Assembly (NCBI RefSeq): GCF_029504745.1
Contig: NZ_JAQFIQ010000011.1
Location: 1 to 32,000, forward strand
DNA: 32,000 nucleotides
Source: Breznakia sp. PF5-3
Lineage (GTDB): Bacteria > Bacillota_I > Bacilli_A > Erysipelotrichales > Erysipelotrichaceae
Direction of reading: 5' to 3'
Shown here: piece after piece, positions 20,195 to 30,843 of the stretch
Layout of the letters: every line of letters begins with the position of its first letter
How positions within the stretch are numbered: the first letter of the stretch is position 1
Notes under the pieces: generated by a model
The model's input: only the letters and a program-made list of their open reading frames with translations
Databases searched by the model: none
What the model was told of the DNA's origin: nothing
Position numbers and translations under genes: made by a program

Positions 20195-21739
20195 TTATGC
20201 TTCCTCGCTTTCGATATTTTGGGGTACATGATTTAATCGTTTTTCAACAAAATTCAAAATCAATGTTGCAACCGAAGTTAAAAGTAAATAAATAATACTT
20301 GTGATAAAGAATGTTTCTGTAAATAACATCACACTTCCAGCTACTGATGAAGATTGGAAATATAATTCAATAAGACCAATTACATTCAACATACTACTAT
20401 CTTTGATATTTACGATTAATTGATTTCCAATTGAAGGGAAAGAGTTTTTAATCGCTTGCGGAAGAATGATATTAAACATCGTTTGTGTATTGTTCATTCC
20501 AATACTACGTGCTCCTTCACTTTGTCCACGATCCACTGCCTGAATACCAGAGCGGATAATCTCTGCCATATAAGCACCTGTATTGATGGAAATAATTACA
20601 ATTCCAGCAGTCAATGCATTCCAGTGGAGGATTGGTCTAAAGATAGAATATAAGAAGATTGCTTGTACCATCATAGGAGTTCCTCTAAAAATCCATACAT
20701 AAAGACTTACAAAACCATGGGCAATTCTTTTTAATCCTTTAACAAGGGTACTATCTTTGTCATCTACTTCTACTGCACGAACTCCACCAAGGATTAAACC
20801 AATGATAAGACCACATAAGGTACCAACAATGGATAACAATAAAGTAATTTGAATTCCATATAAGAATAGTGACCAGTTGTTTTCAAAAATCCATCCAACT
20901 TTACCAAAGAAGTTTGTTGGAACTCCTTCTTTTGGTTGTAGTTTTGTGGATAATTTCATCATTTCACTACGATCAGCTGCTGATATTTTATCTAAGGAAG
21001 CTTGGACATCGTTAAAGAACTTTGTACCTCGTGTACCATCTTTTAAACCAATGGAAACAGATGTATCCACATTGAATCCTTTTCCTTTAGCAAAGGTAGT
21101 AATGGCTAAATCATCGTTGGTTTCAAGAACTCCTTCAGCTACTGGCATTTCGGCTGTAATCCCATCTACTTCTTTGTTTTGTAACGCCAAAAGCATTTCT
21201 GGATACGTCGCTTTTGGAGTAGCATGATCAACGCCTTTAATCTGATCGATGATTTCATCATAAGTTGTATTTTTTTGTCCGATTACGGTTTTACCACTAA
21301 AATCTTGAATCGATGAAGCTTTTTCCTCAGCACTGTCTTTACGAACAATCATAACCATTTCAGATTCATAATATGGTGTTGTAAAGTCAATTCCATTTTC
21401 ACGCTCATCATTGGCTGTCATACCAGCGATGATGGCATCGATTTCACCAGATTCAAGCGCTGGTTGTAAACCATCCCATGATAATTTCTTAATCACCAGT
21501 TCACGATCTAAATCATCGGCAATCTTTTGGGAAATCATAACATCATACCCATCACAGTACCCAGCGCTACCAATCGCTACCGCACTCTCTGTTTCGGTGT
21601 TTGTCTGCCAGTTGAATGGTGCATAATTACATTCCATTCCAACCGTGAAAGTTTCTTGTTTCTTTTCTGCTGCTACAAGTTGTATGAATCCTGTAAAGAG
21701 AATCCCACAAACAAGTAAAACTTTTGTTAGCTTTTTCAT
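20195..21739 (-). CDS. fused substrate-binding domain + permease of a polar amino-acid ABC transporter (candidate lysine importer)
   Basis: Signal peptide [15 protein letters not shown], a ~270-aa type-3 SBP domain, then a permease with the coupling loop [35 protein letters not shown] at 21739 with GGAGG upstream. A lysine riboswitch precedes it. Confidence 0.85.
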
Positions 21740-21759
21740 TTCTATTCCTCCCAATCATT

Positions 21760-21964
21760 AAAAAACGTCAATAAGAACCCACTCTTATTGACGTTATCAA
21801 CCTCATTTAAGATAGTGCTCCTACAAAATGTAGACAGTGCTATAGATATTCTCTATAGTCCCACAACTCATATATGCCTATGTGAATCATTCGGCAGATA
21901 ACTCCTAAGTAATGTGTCTAACGAATGCCTTCTTCACATCACGTCTTAGTATCTGCGCCTCTAT
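21760..21964 (-). promoter_or_regulatory. lysine riboswitch (L-box) with terminator expression platform
   Basis: The minus-strand leader reads AGAGGCGCAG...GGAGTTATCTGCCGAATG...GTTGTGGGACT...AGCACTGTCTAC...GGAGCACTATC. These match the conserved L-box blocks (GAGGCGC, UGCCGAA, UGGGA, CACUGUC, GGAGxxCUAUC). The hairpin AACGTCAATAAGAgtgggTTCTTATTGACGTT plus TTTTT (21760-21796) follows, just before the RBS. Confidence 0.7.
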
Positions 21965-22155
21965 CGATATTTAATTGTTAGGTTTATTATAGCAGTTAAT
22001 GAAAATAGTGCAAGGATTTCAATGGTAATGAGAAAACTTAGATTTTATGAATATGTCTTTGTATTTTTAGTATCTGAGAAATTGTGTACATATTCATGGA
22101 AAAAAATGATGATAAATGATATTATAATAACGTTTATAAAACGAAGGAGATAACA

Positions 22156-23697: not shown

Positions 23698-23936
23698 AAA
23701 AAGCCAATTTTTAAGTTAAATAGGAGTCTATAATATGAAAAAATGTAGAAATGACACCGAACGACGAAGTTTCGGATTAGTATGTCAGAGACTCTCTAAT
23801 TTAAGGGATTATGTGAATTGTACTATTAACAATGGAGAGCTAAATGACTAGAAGAGATAACGATACAAGGTTATAAGAATATAAGCATTTATAAAGTTAG
23901 CAGAAGAAGATTTGAAATAATTGAATTATTTTAATA

Positions 23937-23945
23937 TGGTATAAT
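23937..23945 (+). promoter_or_regulatory. extended -10 promoter (TGgTATAAT) for the DUF262-HEPN pair
   Basis: tggtataat lies about 30 nt upstream of the ATG at 23976, which has the RBS GAGGAGG. Confidence 0.5.
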
Positions 23946-23975
23946 AAAGCAAATGAAAATTGAGGAGGACAGAAA

Positions 23976-25106
23976 ATGGAAACAGAAAATTTTGAAGTGT
24001 TAGAAGAAGAACAACAACCATATTCTAATGACGATTTATATAATATAAGCTCATGGGGAGCAGATTTAACGTTTAGAGAACTTATTCAAATGTACGACGA
24101 GGGCGATTTGATTAAGCCGGAGTTACAGAGAAAGTATGTTTGGACCAAGGATGAAGCAAGTCGTTTTATAGACTCCATTTTATTAGGACTGCCAGTTCCA
24201 AGTATTTTTTTAGCTGTTGATGATGATGAAAGAAGATTAATTGTTGATGGATATCAACGTATAATGAGTGCTCGTGATTATGTGCGAGGTGTTTTTACAT
24301 CAGATGAAAAATTATTTAGATTATCGGATAAGGAAATTATTAATTCTAGGTGGCGTGGGAAAAGCTTTGAAGAACTTGAAGCTGAAGAAAAAAGAAGGAT
24401 AAGAACTACAACAATTCATGCAATTATATTTGAGCAAAAATATCCTAATAACGATACAGGAATGTATCAAATATTTGAAAGAATAAATACAAGTGGAAAA
24501 ACTCTTAAACCGCAAGAAATTAGAAATTGTGTTTATCAAGGGAGTTTCAATGAACTATTGTTTGAATTGAATAGATTGTCAGTTTGGAGAACAATTGTTG
24601 GGTCTGAAAAAGAAGATCCAAGAATGTACGATATGGAGCTTATACTACGTTTCTTTGCTATTTGTGACATAAAAAATAGTGATGAGTTTCAAGAAAAGCA
24701 GATAAACTTAACTAAATTTTTGAATGTTTACATGGGCAAAAACAAAAATTTGAATGACGATTCATCAACAGCTTTAAAAAATCGTTTTTTATGTGTAATG
24801 ACGATTGCTAGAGAATTATTTGGTCAGAGTGTTTTCAGAAGGTATAATGAGAAAACTTCAAAGTTTGCTAAGTCGATTCACCCCATTACTTTTGAGGCTA
24901 TATCAGTAAGTATTTATTTTGCTCATAAAGAGGGATACGATTTTAATTCAATTGATAACTATTCCGAAAGATATCACGAATTATTGCAAAATGATGCTTT
25001 CATTGATGCTACTAGTGTAAGGACAACTAATGTAGAGAACATTAAGCAAAGAATTAAAATTGCTTTAAAAATATTATTTGGTATGGAATATGACTGGGGA
25101 AATTAA
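23976..25106 (+). CDS. DUF262 (ParB-like nuclease/NTPase superfamily, GmrSD N-terminal type) protein
   Basis: N-terminal pattern LIKPELQRKYVWTKDEASRFIDSILLGLPVPSIFL...LIVDGYQRI (a QR...W...DGxQR core); 376 aa, no DUF1524/HNH tail. Confidence 0.8.
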   Translation: METENFEVLEEEQQPYSNDDLYNISSWGADLTFRELIQMYDEGDLIKPELQRKYVWTKDEASRFIDSILLGLPVPSIFLAVDDDERRLIVDGYQRIMSARDYVRGVFTSDEKLFRLSDKEIINSRWRGKSFEELEAEEKRRIRTTTIHAIIFEQKYPNNDTGMYQIFERINTSGKTLKPQEIRNCVYQGSFNELLFELNRLSVWRTIVGSEKEDPRMYDMELILRFFAICDIKNSDEFQEKQINLTKFLNVYMGKNKNLNDDSSTALKNRFLCVMTIARELFGQSVFRRYNEKTSKFAKSIHPITFEAISVSIYFAHKEGYDFNSIDNYSERYHELLQNDAFIDATSVRTTNVENIKQRIKIALKILFGMEYDWGN

Positions 25107-25569
25107 TAATGCTTTCAATGATGTAGATAACGAGCTGAAAAATATTAGAAAATACATAAATAAAAATAAATTTGATGTTAATACAAAATATCTCATATCA
25201 TATGCGGTTGTTAGAGCATGTGGTACAATAGAGACTGTTTACAAAAAACTCGTTCATGATTTTTTGACTGATGGAGCGAAACCTGAAACAGGTCAATATT
25301 TATCGAAAATAATCATCGATAGCTCAAGTAATCCTAAAACAGGGAATATAGAAAAAATGTTAACTGATATAAATTCTAAACTATGTAATGATTTTAAAAG
25401 TAGAATTAGCAACCAGGAAAAATCTGACCTAAACTCATTAGTTCAGAATAGAAATGACTTTGCTCATGGAAGAACAGTTACTATTTCGATAGAAATAGTA
25501 ATAAAGTATTTTGCATCATCAAAAAAAATTATAGTTGACTTAAAAGAAACACTAGATAAAATAGTGTGA
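25090..25569 (+). CDS. HEPN-domain protein (MAE_28990/MAE_18760-like), partner of the DUF262 gene
   Basis: All-helical ~160 aa with the Rx4H motif RNDFAH at 25450-25467. It overlaps the DUF262 stop by 17 nt (ATG 25090; a TTG at 25078 is also possible). Confidence 0.65.
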   Translation: MTGEINNAFNDVDNELKNIRKYINKNKFDVNTKYLISYAVVRACGTIETVYKKLVHDFLTDGAKPETGQYLSKIIIDSSSNPKTGNIEKMLTDINSKLCNDFKSRISNQEKSDLNSLVQNRNDFAHGRTVTISIEIVIKYFASSKKIIVDLKETLDKIV

Positions 25570-26073
25570 TAGCAATTTGATAACAATCAATAATAGTGTA
25601 ACGAATATTAAAGAATATAAAATGGTGTATAACATCATAAACTCGTTTATATCCATTCAATATACTATAATATTAATTGGAAGGAAGTAATATAAAAGTT
25701 TTATTTTTAAGCGTTATTTAACTTCAAAGTGGAACACCTAGGTAGTTATGATTATTTACTTAAATGCAGGTGATTCTAACTCCCCATTTTTATTTTGCAA
25801 ATCAGTTCATGATATGCAAAAAACAGTAGGAATGACATTAAAAGAGGAGTTGCAAAGTTTCGTGTAGGAGCATTAGAGAATATTTTGTTTAGTGAGTTGT
25901 GTGAACTTTGTTACAAGCAATGTAGAGTAAAAGGATTAGAAGAGGTTACATTGAAAGTGTTTATGTCAAGTGAAAAGTACCCCACCGTTGCCGTTGAAAA
26001 AGGGACCACTACGTTTAAAAAAGAACCCATATCATATGGATTAATGGCTTCTTTTTTATAAGATTAGATTATT

Positions 26074-26826
26074 CTATTTTTGATTATTATCCACACCTAA
26101 CCAATCTTGTGTCTTTTTGATTCGATAGCTTTCTCCACGCATATCTATAACGTGTGACTTATAAGCTAGTCTGTCAATAATCGCACCAGTTAGCACTGGA
26201 TCCTTAAATGTTTCTTCCCATCTATCGAAAGCTAAATTTGTAGTGATGATAATGCTCCCTTTATCATTTCGGTTAGAAAGCAGATTGAAGAGCATTTCGC
26301 TTCCATCCTTATCAAAGGATACATATCCTAGTTCATCTAATATCACCAAATCATATTTTTCGAATCTACGTTTAAATAATGTCATTTGACTAAGGCTATA
26401 TGCTTCCTTCATTTCTGTCACTAAATTTGGAACACTGGAAAATAATACAGTATGCCCTTTCGTACACGCTTCTATGCCAAGTGCTACTGCATAATGTGTT
26501 TTGCCTGTTCCTGGATTACCTATCAATATGATATTCTCTTTCCGTTTTATAAATGACAGATCAGTAAGCGTTTTTAGCTTTTCTTTTACCTCTGCTTTAT
26601 ATGGTTTGAATTCAAAGTCCACTATGTATTTTTTGTTAGTGAATCGTGCTCGTTGTATTCTTTTTGTAATTCCTGTTTCTGCTCGTAAGTCTATTTCATT
26701 TTGCAGTAATTCCTCTATAACTTCTTCAATTTCTAATCCTCTCTGCTTTGCTTCTTCAATAAATTGTTTGTGATTATGCCGTGTATACGGTAATCGCAAA
26801 TCATATGCTAATGTTTCAATTGACAT
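26074..26826 (-). CDS. istB: IS21 helper ATPase IstB
   Basis: Walker A GNPGTGKTH, Walker B LVILDELGY, 250 aa; overlaps the istA end by 19 nt. Confidence 0.9.
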   Translation of the reverse strand: MSIETLAYDLRLPYTRHNHKQFIEEAKQRGLEIEEVIEELLQNEIDLRAETGITKRIQRARFTNKKYIVDFEFKPYKAEVKEKLKTLTDLSFIKRKENIILIGNPGTGKTHYAVALGIEACTKGHTVLFSSVPNLVTEMKEAYSLSQMTLFKRRFEKYDLVILDELGYVSFDKDGSEMLFNLLSNRNDKGSIIITTNLAFDRWEETFKDPVLTGAIIDRLAYKSHVIDMRGESYRIKKTQDWLGVDNNQK

Positions 26827-28292
26827 GTTTCTTCTCCTTCCTTTTCTTGCTGTAAACCAAACATTTGATTCAGTTTTATTAACTCCGTTTTTACTGCATC
26901 CTTTACTTCATTTGATTTGCTAACCATGACTTTATTCGTTGCTTTATTTACCAGTAAATCTGGTAGTTCACTAATGTGTTTGTCTGTGTTTTTTAATAAT
27001 ATCTCTATGAATTCTCTTTCATTTTGTTTAAAATAGGTTTGATAGATGGATAATAACTGTGGGCATTGCTTCAGTGCCAATGAATGCTTTAAGGCCCCCG
27101 GTTTGTTGCGTAATGTCTTTAGATAATGTTGTAATTCTAATTGATATTGACCAACTCCATCTATTTTTTTATGCGATTCAACATAGTTATTATTTGCATA
27201 GATATCATAATGATCATGATACTTCTTTACTTTAACGTTTTTCCCAACTAAGTAATCAGGGACAGAATAGTGGTTGTTATCCAAACATACGCAACTATAT
27301 TTATCCACTTTAGATTCCACGAGTACTGCTAATTCATAGGGTACTTTGTATCCTCTTAAACATTTCTTTTCTTCTTCAATTTTACAGTTTTGATTCATCA
27401 TCATTAGTCCTTCATGTAAATGTTCTTGTGCATGCTCCAGAGAAGTAAACTTGTACTTTTTTGTAAATAGTCGCTTCCTTATAATTTCTACCGTTCTCTC
27501 AACACTCCCTTTTTCATTTCCTGCGTATGCATTCGTTGTAGTGATATCAAAGCCATAATAGAGTGACATTTGAATCAATTGCGGATTCAGCTCCTTTTTA
27601 TGACCAATGAATTTAGATACAACATTGCGCATGTTGTCATAAACAACTTCTGCATATACTCCTTTCACCATTTTAAAGAAACGAACATGTGAATCCAAGA
27701 AGATATCCATTTTTTGATTCTTATATAAGTATCCCCACCGAAAACCACTAGCAGGGGCTGCAAAAGTAGCTAAGTGATATTTCACAACTTCTCCATTGAT
27801 ATATAGTTTAACTTCTCCAAAATCATATTCAACTCGCTCTCCATACTCATAGTCTTGACGAATGAAAGCTTCCTGTGCCTTTTCAATAATAGTTTTCCAG
27901 TAAGACATCATCGTTCGATAAGTAATATCAAACCCTTCATCAGTAATCATCTCATGCACACGACAACCATCAAGTTGCTGCTTGTGAGTCTTACCAAGAA
28001 GATTTGTTTTTTTCACTTCACCTTTCGCAATTTCTTCAAGTCGTCGAAGCAAGTGTGCTGTCATCTTCCGTGGTTTTCGGTTTGTGCTATCATATGATTT
28101 TACTTCAACTATGGTACGTATGATTTCATCTTTTTCTTCATTTGTTAGTTCCTCACTTTCTAATAGTTTTTGATTTGCATCGTATTCCTTACAAGTTCGC
28201 GTAATCGTTTTTCTGTTAATTCCTGTTTCCCTTTCAATGAATCGATAGTATTTCCCTTGTAAGTGCAACATAATAATTTCTCGTTTCTTCAT
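26808..28292 (-). CDS. istA: IS21 transposase IstA
   Basis: N-terminal HTH (MKKREIIMLHLQGKYYRFIERETGINRKTI) and a DDE core (EYDFGE..., YDNMRNVV). I chose the start at 28292, preceded by GGAGGTGAAGGAG; the tracked 28355 start lies in the terminal repeat. Confidence 0.9.
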   Translation of the reverse strand: MKKREIIMLHLQGKYYRFIERETGINRKTITRTCKEYDANQKLLESEELTNEEKDEIIRTIVEVKSYDSTNRKPRKMTAHLLRRLEEIAKGEVKKTNLLGKTHKQQLDGCRVHEMITDEGFDITYRTMMSYWKTIIEKAQEAFIRQDYEYGERVEYDFGEVKLYINGEVVKYHLATFAAPASGFRWGYLYKNQKMDIFLDSHVRFFKMVKGVYAEVVYDNMRNVVSKFIGHKKELNPQLIQMSLYYGFDITTTNAYAGNEKGSVERTVEIIRKRLFTKKYKFTSLEHAQEHLHEGLMMMNQNCKIEEEKKCLRGYKVPYELAVLVESKVDKYSCVCLDNNHYSVPDYLVGKNVKVKKYHDHYDIYANNNYVESHKKIDGVGQYQLELQHYLKTLRNKPGALKHSLALKQCPQLLSIYQTYFKQNEREFIEILLKNTDKHISELPDLLVNKATNKVMVSKSNEVKDAVKTELIKLNQMFGLQQEKEGEETCQLKH

Positions 28293-28872
28293 TAATTTCG
28301 TCACTCCTTCACCTCCGGATTTTATTATTTCATAGTCCAGAGTATAAAAAAACAAGTGGTCCCTTTTTCAACGGCAACATACCGTGAAAATGGTCCACTT
28401 TTAAATTACAACAAACAGAAAGACTATAAATTTTCTTGTGATTATTTTTTGAAGTATGCAGGAAAGGGATTGGTATGTTTAGAAATCAATCAGGAATTAA
28501 TTGATGATTATATACTTCACCATAAAGAAAAAGTTAGTGATGAATCAGTAAACTCTTATCAGTTTAAGATATCTCCTGTTATCCATTATGGCTACGATAG
28601 AGGCTCCATAAGAGATGAAATAACTAAACTAGGAGAAGATAAAAGAGGTTTATACAGGCTATGAGCTAAAACTATTATTAAAGAAACCAAAGAAGAAAAG
28701 TTTTGCTCAGTATAGAACCTAGGTAATTATCAATATTTTGATTTCTACAGGAATTAGAGCAAAGAAATTAAGAGAGTTATTAGTGTCAAGTATTGATTTG
28801 GAGAATAAAGTAATTTGTTTACCACATACAAAGAATAAAAAGGGTACTTACCTATAATTTTAACACTAAATG

Positions 28873-29495: not shown

Positions 29496-29554
29496 ATATA
29501 TTATGCTATAATGTAACAGACTAATTTTGAAATAGAGTAAGGATGGAGGTTGCT

Positions 29555-29770
29555 ATGTCAAAATTAAGCTATAAAAAGTTATTTAAAATATTGATAGATA
29601 TTGATATGACAAACGCAGAACTTATGGATAAAGCAAAAATCAGCAAGAGTACATTTTATAAAATGAAAAATGGTGAAAACATTACCACTGACGTATTACT
29701 TCGAGTTTGTGATGTGTTGAAATGTGATGTTTCTGATATTGTTGAATGTGTGGAGGTAAAAAAATGTTAA
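29555..29770 (+). CDS. small XRE/Cro-type HTH regulator (candidate controller protein of the R-M module)
   Basis: 71 aa; HTH MTNAELMDKAKISKSTFYKMKNGENITTDVLLRVCDVL. GGAGG lies 5 nt before the ATG at 29555. Its stop overlaps the methyltransferase start. Confidence 0.75.
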   Translation: MSKLSYKKLFKILIDIDMTNAELMDKAKISKSTFYKMKNGENITTDVLLRVCDVLKCDVSDIVECVEVKKC

Positions 29771-30843
29771 AAGTAGCTACAGGTTTTAGTGGAATTGGTG
29801 CTTTTGAACAAGCTTTAAAAAGATTGAATATAGACCATGAGATTCTATTCGCTTGTGATAATGGAGAAAGATACTTAGATTTAGATAAAGATGAAATTAT
29901 TGAAAATTATGATTTAAAAAAATATGACACATTCGAAGATTATATAAGAGATTTATATGATAAAACTGGAAAAGAAAACAATGTTAAGAAATCATATTTT
30001 GCAAATTATGATATTGATGAAAATAAATGGTATGAAGACATTAGGTTTATGGATGTAAAACAGTATAAGGATCAAATTGATATTTTTGTTGGAGGTAGTC
30101 CTTGTCAAAGCTTTTCTACATATGGTTTTAGGCGTGGCTTAGAAGATACTAGAGGAACTCTTTTCTATGATTACGCAAGAATTATACAAGACACTCACCC
30201 AAAAGTTTTTATTTTTGAAAATGTTACTGGTCTATTAAATCATGACAATGGTAAAACTTGGGAAATAATAAAAAGTACATTTTTGGAGTTAGATTATGAT
30301 ATAAAAATGGAAATATTGAATGCTAAAGATTACAATTTGCCGCAACTTAGAAGAAGAGTATTTGTAGTTGGAATAAAAAAAGAATTCGACATTAAAGATT
30401 TTACATTCCCAAAGAAGGTTGAATTAACAAGAAATAGTTCTATGTTCCTTGATAAACATGTGGATAATAAATACTATTTGGGTGAAAAAGGATTTAAATT
30501 CGTTACTGACCCGTCTCGAAATGGCAGACGAGCAAGAGTGAATCAGGAAGTGATTGGATGCCAAACAGCAAATCAGCAATTTAATTGGGTAGGTGATTTC
30601 AGGGTAGAAAAACCAACAAAAGGTCAACTTGAGGATGATAAAATATATAAAGGTATGTACGAAGGGGAAATATCAGTGGCAAGGAAGATGACACCGAATG
30701 AGCTTTTACGCTTAATGGGATTTGAAAAATTTAATATTGTAGTTCCAGATAAAGTTATTTGGAGACAAACTGGAAATTCAATAGCAGTCGATGTTTTAAT
30801 GGCATTAGTAAAAGAAATACTCGACCAAGTAGATTTGATATAG
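29764..30843 (+). CDS. DNA (cytosine-5)-methyltransferase
   Basis: Motif I FSGIGAF, motif IV GGSPCQSFS, motif VI ENV, motif VIII QLRRRVF, motif X GNSIAVDV. ATG at 29764 with GGAGG upstream. Confidence 0.9.
   Translation: MLKVATGFSGIGAFEQALKRLNIDHEILFACDNGERYLDLDKDEIIENYDLKKYDTFEDYIRDLYDKTGKENNVKKSYFANYDIDENKWYEDIRFMDVKQYKDQIDIFVGGSPCQSFSTYGFRRGLEDTRGTLFYDYARIIQDTHPKVFIFENVTGLLNHDNGKTWEIIKSTFLELDYDIKMEILNAKDYNLPQLRRRVFVVGIKKEFDIKDFTFPKKVELTRNSSMFLDKHVDNKYYLGEKGFKFVTDPSRNGRRARVNQEVIGCQTANQQFNWVGDFRVEKPTKGQLEDDKIYKGMYEGEISVARKMTPNELLRLMGFEKFNIVVPDKVIWRQTGNSIAVDVLMALVKEILDQVDLI

Follow-up and report, generated by a model that had tools for sequence, protein, structure and literature searches.

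A DUF262-HEPN gene pair of Breznakia sp. PF5-3 as a putative anti-phage defence module related to PD-T4-2

PD-T4-2 is a two-gene anti-phage system from Escherichia coli ECOR65, listed as 'DUF262, HEPN' (Vassallo 2022, PMC9519451). In that study, PD-T4-2A was assigned to PF03235 and PD-T4-2B to PF18735 by HHpred, and the two open reading frames (ORFs) span 1,540 bp. PD-T4-2 with its native promoter protected strain MG1655 against phage T4. The deletion of the system from ECOR65 was viable, and T4 plaquing was greatly raised (PMC9519451). Here, a gene pair of the same architecture was analyzed in a window of 32,000 nucleotides (nt), i.e., positions 1-32,000 of contig NZ_JAQFIQ010000011.1 of Breznakia sp. 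PF5-3. All coordinates are window positions. The first gene (gene A) encodes a DUF262 protein, and the second (gene B) encodes a small HEPN protein. The favored reading, with a probability of about 0.72, is that the two genes form an anti-phage defence module of the PD-T4-2 type.

PD-T4-2 is included in PADLOC as the models PD-T4-2_A and PD-T4-2_B. Reviews and a 2025 study of Menshen place it among the DUF262 systems without DUF1524, which 'remain largely uncharacterized'. Literature searches on PD-T4-2, RiboL-PSP, DUF262 with HEPN, and DUF262 with ribonuclease (RNase) gave listings and reviews, but no mechanistic study. A preliminary description of the Breznakia pair, made from the sequence letters, had called this minimal pair uncharacterized. 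That view stands for the mechanism. It does not stand for the phenotype, as protection by the same architecture was validated in 2022 with PD-T4-2 of ECOR65. The preliminary description had also mentioned that this HEPN family and DUF262 proteins are associated in operons, which is listed in Table 1 of Anantharaman 2013. There, both HEPN families discussed below, HEPN_RiboL-PSP and MAE_28990, are associated with DUF262/ParB, with the entry 'Ribo L-PSP-HEPN ... operon with ParB'.

The two domains have separate known roles in defence. In GmrSD, BrxU, and SspE, DUF262 is a nucleoside triphosphatase (NTPase) that senses modified DNA and switches on an attached nuclease (PMC10952713, PMC12065111). 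The HEPN defence proteins are dimeric RNases that stay inactive until infection.

The product of gene A matched Pfam GmrSD_N/DUF262 (PF03235) at amino acids (aa) 34-187 (E = 1.2e-25), and this was its sole Pfam match. No DUF1524/HNH nuclease domain was detected by Pfam in A or in the neighbouring proteins. A GmrSD-type enzyme was also considered for A and was rejected, because A is without DUF1524. The three DUF262 motifs, i.e., QRxxxW, DGxQR, and FxxxN as defined in PMC12065111, were all recognized in A, and their key residues are invariant in an alignment of 36 A homologues that are 54-89% identical (Table 1). The DGYQR motif of A is predicted to be the center of nucleoside triphosphate (NTP) binding and hydrolysis, by analogy with the role of DGxQR in GmrSD-like proteins (PMC10952713) and with the HEC-06 mutants. 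Against the PADLOC models, A matched NsnA of Menshen over its full length (E = 1.4e-72, 243 bits) and PD-T4-2_A at profile positions 41-361 of 363 (E = 4.2e-54, 182 bits). NCBIfam had no model for A or B.

The AlphaFold2 model of A (pLDDT 83.8) is alpha/beta in its N-terminal half and helical in its C-terminal half. Its closest fold in PDB was BrxU (7p9k), a member of the GmrSD family (E = 5.9e-4), followed by the N-domains of the ParB/Noc/KorB CTPases and sulfiredoxin. In a profile search, A aligned to BrxU at residues 7-68 only, i.e., the N-terminus. The predicted structure supports a DUF262 domain of the ParB/sulfiredoxin fold that is followed by a helical domain like ParBDB of Menshen NsnA. 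Many A homologues are longer (460-500 aa), and their N-terminus is extended by a variable segment of 100-125 aa (proteins P0047, P0053, and P0027; loci L002-L004, L007-L010, L012, and L013). No Pfam match was found for these extensions. Their variability suggests that DUF262-HEPN pairs may swap sensors, as in Type II NsnA.

The product of gene B was assigned to Pfam HEPN_RiboL-PSP (PF18735) with E = 5.3e-16 and 59.5 bits against a gathering cut-off of 28.4, and the other HEPN families in Pfam matched it below threshold. The PADLOC model PD-T4-2_B matched B at positions 6-158 of 168 (E = 7.2e-7, 27 bits). An exhaustive profile search with B collected clusters at 50% identity, i.e., 1,526 with E <= 1e-3 and 113 with E <= 1e-30. 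Nearly all of these proteins stand alone and are about 160 aa long. Weak PADLOC cross-matches to AbiD, Csx1, and Cas13-ApeA occurred within this family.

Six residues, i.e., R121, N122, F124, A125, H126, and G127, do not vary in 17 close homologues of B. When 129 diverse members, taken from the best representatives of the profile search, were aligned, E48, R121, and H126 were the sole invariant columns, and N122 and G127 were conserved at >=90%. This pattern is as expected from the sequence of a catalytic Rx4H RNase. Because the three residues stay invariant across such diverged proteins, a catalytic RNase is favored over a scaffold. Judged from the alignments, A and B were both shown to keep their putative catalytic signatures under strong purifying selection.

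The AlphaFold2 model of B (pLDDT 93.6) is all-helical, with seven helices. Seven of its eight top PDB matches by Foldseek were HEPN proteins, with AF_0298 (2hsb), 4nqf, and the HepT toxins (6m6w, 7bxo, and 5yep) among them, but the statistics were weak (E = 0.12-1.2, TM 0.42-0.62). A PDB sequence search found no solved structure related to B. The fold evidence is therefore consistent but not decisive, and the HEPN assignment relies on the hidden Markov model match and the motif. With these results, the domain assignments of the preliminary description were borne out, i.e., a DUF262 protein that carries DGYQR and is without DUF1524/HNH, followed by a HEPN protein with RNDFAH.

The same residues bear on an explanation in which the pair targets DNA in the manner of type IV restriction. 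A, as a ParB-like 'nuclease', or an unrecognized activity would attack modified phage DNA, and the HEPN protein would be a non-catalytic adaptor or regulator. This would agree with the type IV enzyme BrxU as the closest solved relative of A, with the sensing of modified DNA by DUF262 in GmrSD and SspE, and with the selection of PD-T4-2 by T4, whose DNA is modified with glucosylated hydroxymethylcytosine. However, the DUF1524 His-Me nuclease, which does the cleavage in GmrSD, BrxU, and SspE, is missing from A, and among the diverged B proteins, no positions other than E48 and the R and H of Rx4H are invariant. DNA targeting is thus considered quite unlikely.

Genes A and B were both present in the ORF list, and their products were 100% identical to NCBI M2475_000819 and M2475_000820. 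The A-B locus is also present in several Breznakia assemblies. As had been described, the two genes overlap by 17 nt, from the ATG of B to the stop codon of A. The preliminary description had numbered B from an in-frame TTG, whereas NCBI and all homologues use the ATG. In most homologous loci, the junction is tATGAATGGTGA with an 11-nt overlap, in which Y-E-W-stop of A overlaps M-N-G of B. This junction is nearly identical in nucleotides among Bacillota, Negativicutes, and Pasteurellaceae (loci L001-L021, e.g., L016 6115-6125). Because the ATG of B is embedded in the conserved C-terminal codons of A, Y-E/D-W, in most loci, it is taken as the true start. From the conserved overlap, translational coupling of A and B is a reasonable inference.

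The signals upstream of gene A are less clear. The preliminary description had given the pair its own extended -10 promoter. The TGgTATAAT element is present, and a Shine-Dalgarno sequence precedes the start codon. However, the consensus promoter scan found no -35 element at 16-18 nt from TGgTATAAT, and missed the element because of this spacing. The terminator scan found no intrinsic terminator after guaA or after B. Since no recognizable terminator lies between guaA and A, read-through from guaA into A is possible. An own promoter for the pair is thus plausible from the sequence, but putative. No RNA element was found by Rfam in or beside the pair. Between guaA and A lies a 38-aa ORF, MKKCRNDTERRSFGLVCQ..., which was predicted by gene callers in all Breznakia contigs and had no family match.

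The linkage of the two genes was examined across genomes. By a pattern search for B relatives, with one genome per species, 15 loci were found. All full-length cases (13/13) have an A relative, 49-59% identical, that ends where B begins. The other two loci (L014 5999-6168 and L015 6001-6168) hold decayed B fragments with stops, covering residues 94-148 only, and have no A upstream; they adjoin a PIN-type toxin-antitoxin pair and an ATPase gene. These two were also considered as B fusions, which was rejected because they are short fragments with stop codons. In IMG/VR, only two loci with B were found, and both viral contigs have A upstream. B had no match in the phage GenBank collection. In Aggregatibacter, Phascolarctobacterium, and a phage-like element of Clostridium butyricum, a PF18735 gene comes directly after the A relative, with the 11-nt overlap, and the Phascolarctobacterium relative was seen in hundreds of gut metagenome contigs. 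Across the loci, the sequence conservation of A is consistently above that of B. A and B are inherited as a unit. They are adjacent in every related locus examined, in the same order and usually overlapping, and the unit moves from phylum to phylum, as well as into BREX operons and onto plasmids and prophages. The preliminary description had named genes unlinked in other genomes as a refuting outcome, and this outcome was not seen.

This linkage bears on the possibility of a decayed Menshen system (NsnABC), in which A would be NsnA, NsnB and NsnC would have been lost to an insertion of IS21, and B would be unrelated. NsnA is the best PADLOC match of A, and B is followed by an IS21 element at a distance of 400 nt. 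However, all E. coli and plasmid A proteins of DUF262-HEPN pairs also score best on NsnA, so the NsnA model appears generic for DUF262 with ParBDB. In more than 20 related loci, exactly A and B are present, the genes that follow are unrelated, and neither the NsnB ATPase nor NsnC occurs. No NsnB or NsnC was found in the homologous loci or downstream of A in Breznakia, where the HEPN gene is followed by a non-coding stretch of 400 nt and then by IS21. Because A and B overlap, B belongs to the operon of A, which also counts against this explanation. Since NsnB and NsnC are absent, the locus is not assigned to Menshen; a Menshen remnant was rejected, and its probability is very small.

The relatives of the pair are found in a variety of mobile and defence settings. 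In three loci of Lachnospiraceae (L002 32-12422, L003, and L013), a type 1 BREX operon holds the pair between its pglX and pglZ genes. The gene order is PglX, DUF3990, A-B, Schlafen/AlbA_2, PglZ, and BrxL, in which the DUF3990 protein and the Schlafen protein (AlbA_2/HATPase_c_4) are also inserted genes. In Phascolarctobacterium, the pair adjoins an HpaII restriction-modification (R-M) system and Vsr. In E. coli, a P2-like prophage carries the pair with the cI repressor gene on one side and the integrase gene on the other (A 51%, B 35% identical). On 3.9-kb E. coli plasmids it is nearly the sole cargo, with a VbhA antitoxin gene (A 49%, B 34%), and on IncX1 plasmids a DUF262-HEPN pair directly follows the rep gene. 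IncF plasmids of E. coli carry DUF262 paired with HEPN of the MAE_28990 family. Several distinct DUF262-HEPN pairs are thus found in E. coli (L023 3978-7841; L024; L025 2091-4605; L026 2941-4641). BREX, R-M systems, prophages, and plasmids are typical settings of defence islands and mobile elements, and the defence context that the preliminary description had proposed was found in these relatives.

The plasmid settings also raise the possibility of an addiction module. Here B would be a HEPN RNase toxin and A its protein antitoxin; the pair would stabilize its carrier element or island, and phage defence would be secondary. HEPN proteins are the toxins in HEPN-MNT systems, to which the HepT matches of B belong. 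The gene overlap would also suit a fixed stoichiometry. A simple HEPN-MNT toxin-antitoxin pair was rejected, because the partner is DUF262 and no MNT was found in the locus by Pfam. Moreover, A has 376 aa and is an enzyme whose NTPase motifs are invariant, and not a small labile antitoxin. The same architecture protects E. coli from phage, and cells with the native deletion are merely phage-sensitive. The recurrence of the pair inside BREX and beside R-M systems also speaks against addiction, which is considered rather unlikely as the main role.

The position of the pair relative to PD-T4-2 was examined with the PADLOC models. The prototype (RCO39066.1 and its unannotated partner, QOYX01000002:338334-339873) was compared through the profile models and the published description. 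The clade members that were scored, including the E. coli prophage and plasmid versions, gave 169-187 bits on PD-T4-2_A and 217-240 bits on NsnA, and 18-33 bits on PD-T4-2_B, on which B of Aggregatibacter had no match. The IncX1 and IncF pairs are still further from the PD-T4-2 models. Searches of E. coli genome and plasmid DNA gave only variants, and none scored as the PD-T4-2 prototype on the PADLOC models. The ECOR65 prototype was also absent from the 150 nearest B representatives. Because the PD-T4-2 models match weakly, the clade is regarded as divergent. From the sequences, the pair is filed as a divergent member of the PD-T4-2 kind, with identical architecture and Pfam families and remote sequences.

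Several points weigh against the assignment as a defence module of the PD-T4-2 type. The PD-T4-2_B score of B is low, and that of Aggregatibacter B is nil. The nearest B representatives match this model in 94 of 129 cases, with a best E of only 1.5e-10. A scores higher on NsnA than on PD-T4-2_A. The Foldseek E-value of B is 0.12 at best. The carriage on tiny plasmids and the position next to rep also fit an addiction module. Finally, the interaction of A and B, DNA binding by A, and RNA cleavage by B are postulated for this clade. Even so, the three other explanations, i.e., addiction, DNA targeting, and decayed Menshen, are each less well supported than the defence module.

As a defence module, the pair may work as follows. 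A would be the sensor and switch. In analogy to GmrSD, BrxU, and SspE, it would bind DNA, perhaps phage DNA that is modified or foreign in some other respect. Binding or hydrolysis of NTP would change the conformation of A. B would be the effector and, like other HEPN proteins, may dimerize to form a composite RNase site. It would be held inactive by A, or be activated only through A, and the overlapping start would fix the stoichiometry of A and B. Upon infection, A would license B to cut RNA, i.e., tRNA, rRNA, or mRNA, and the resulting translation shutdown would block phage production.

A bolder version of this proposal is that the pair represents a distinct and unrecognized DUF262-HEPN subtype, with a family of >1,500 clusters at 50% identity. 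In such a subtype, an NsnA-like ParB NTP-switch, sometimes with polymorphic N-terminal sensors, would read a feature of invading DNA and gate a separate HEPN RNase. It may be an accessory layer within BREX or beside R-M systems that catches restriction-evading phages, and its trigger and RNA target would be unlike those of the PD-T4-2 prototype. We offer this tentatively, as a possibility that is more doubtful than probable. If it is true, the pair would be a 'type IV restriction sensor wired to an RNA-cutting effector'.

Table 1. Features of the DUF262-HEPN pair and its surroundings in the Breznakia window.
Feature	Position	Strand	Remark
Gene A	23976..25106	+	376 aa; ATG start; ORF list
Gene B	25090..25569	+	159 aa from ATG; alternative in-frame TTG at 25078
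A/B overlap	25090..25106	+	17 nt; ATG of B within the conserved Y-D-W codons of A
DUF262 motif I, QRKYVW (QRxxxW)	24126..24143	+	Q51, R52, and W56 invariant in 36 homologues
DUF262 motif II, DGYQR (DGxQR)	24246..24260	+	D91, G92, Q94, and R95 invariant in 36 homologues
DUF262 motif III, FERIN (FxxxN)	24474..24488	+	F167 to N171 invariant in 36 homologues
HEPN signature, RNDFAH (Rx4H)	25450..25467	+	R121/H126 from ATG, i.e., R125/H130 from TTG
Shine-Dalgarno of gene A, GAGGAGG	23962..23968	+	direct reading; 7 nt before ATG 23976
Candidate extended -10, TGgTATAAT	23937..23945	+	direct reading; 30 nt upstream of ATG of A
38-aa ORF	23735-23851	+	between guaA and A
guaA	22156-23697
Lysine riboswitch	21805-21971	-	Rfam RF00168, 74.7 bits
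ABC transporter gene	20195-21754		fused substrate-binding/permease
IS21-family element	~25964-28410	-	~400 nt of non-coding DNA from B
istB	26074-26826	-	IS21 element
istA	26808-28355	-	IS21 element
IS21 inverted repeats	25987-26010 and 28355-28378		24 nt, perfect
102-aa ORF	28356-28664		abuts the IS21 end
R-M Cro/C1 helix-turn-helix gene	29543-29770
R-M 5-methylcytosine methyltransferase gene	29746-30843
R-M 675-aa ORF	from 30857, off the window end		GAPGT at ~aa 378 (full contig)
RE_LlaJI gene	beyond the window		401 aa; cluster in L029 15580-20125

In the Breznakia window, the G+C content of the A-B pair is 27-30% against 34-36% in guaA. For the 3' end of guaA, no att-like direct repeat was found within the window. 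An LlaJI-type R-M cluster lies 4 kb downstream of the pair. The preliminary description had placed the pair next to an R-M system; the cluster is there, but IS21 and an integrase fragment intervene. This fragment, the 102-aa ORF, matched Phage_int_SAM_5 below threshold (E = 5.6e-4) and is without the catalytic domain, and from its sequence it is probably a truncated integrase left from the arrival of the island. On the other side of guaA, a lysine riboswitch was predicted upstream of an ABC transporter gene.

With this pair, a system type whose defence function was demonstrated in E. coli gains an example from Bacillota, in a Breznakia of the insect gut. This is useful for annotation and not surprising alone, and its wider value is as a pointer to the mechanism of PD-T4-2-type systems. 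The clade is large, with frequent occurrence in Bacillota of the gut, in Pasteurellaceae, and in prophages and plasmids of E. coli. Because the current defence-finder models detect its members weakly, the clade is probably under-counted. With a length of about 1.6 kb, the pair would be a compact model for studying the coupling of DNA sensing to an RNase by an NTPase of the ParB fold.

Compared with PD-T4-2, the pair shares two co-directional genes of about 1.5-1.6 kb, with DUF262/PF03235 without DUF1524 followed by a PF18735 HEPN protein of about 160 aa. The PADLOC models PD-T4-2_A and PD-T4-2_B both match full length, and the mobile-element and defence-island contexts are shared. It differs in its host, Breznakia of Bacillota and not E. 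coli, with phage protection known from the E. coli prototype alone, and in its remote sequences, as the scores on both models indicate. The DUF262 and MAE_28990-family HEPN pairs of E. coli IncF plasmids have the same order, i.e., a DUF262 gene and then a HEPN gene. However, their HEPN belongs to another family, and their A is only about 30% identical, with a lower PD-T4-2_A score.

With NsnA of Menshen (Millman 2022; Li et al. 2025, PMC12065111), A shares the ParB-DUF262 domain with the three motifs and the predicted ParBDB-like helical domain, and the variable N-terminal extensions of A homologues are shared with Type II NsnA. The small HEPN partner stands in place of the NsnB ATPase and the NsnC effector. 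With the standalone or fused HEPN defence RNases DARNA/PD-T7-3, ApeA, HepS, AbiD/F, and HepT, B shares the Rx4-6H HEPN domain, which is presumably a dimeric RNase that is off until infection. The sensor is different. DARNA has a C-terminal single-stranded DNA-binding domain and HepT has an MNT antitoxin, whereas here a ParB-like NTPase from a separate, overlapping gene would take this role.

GmrSD, BrxU, and SspE share with A the N-terminal DUF262 NTPase domain and a helical domain after it. BrxU is the best structural match to A, and relatives of the pair are embedded in BREX loci as BrxU is. However, the pair is without the DUF1524 His-Me nuclease of these systems. Its predicted effector is a separate RNase, and therefore its target is probably RNA and not DNA.

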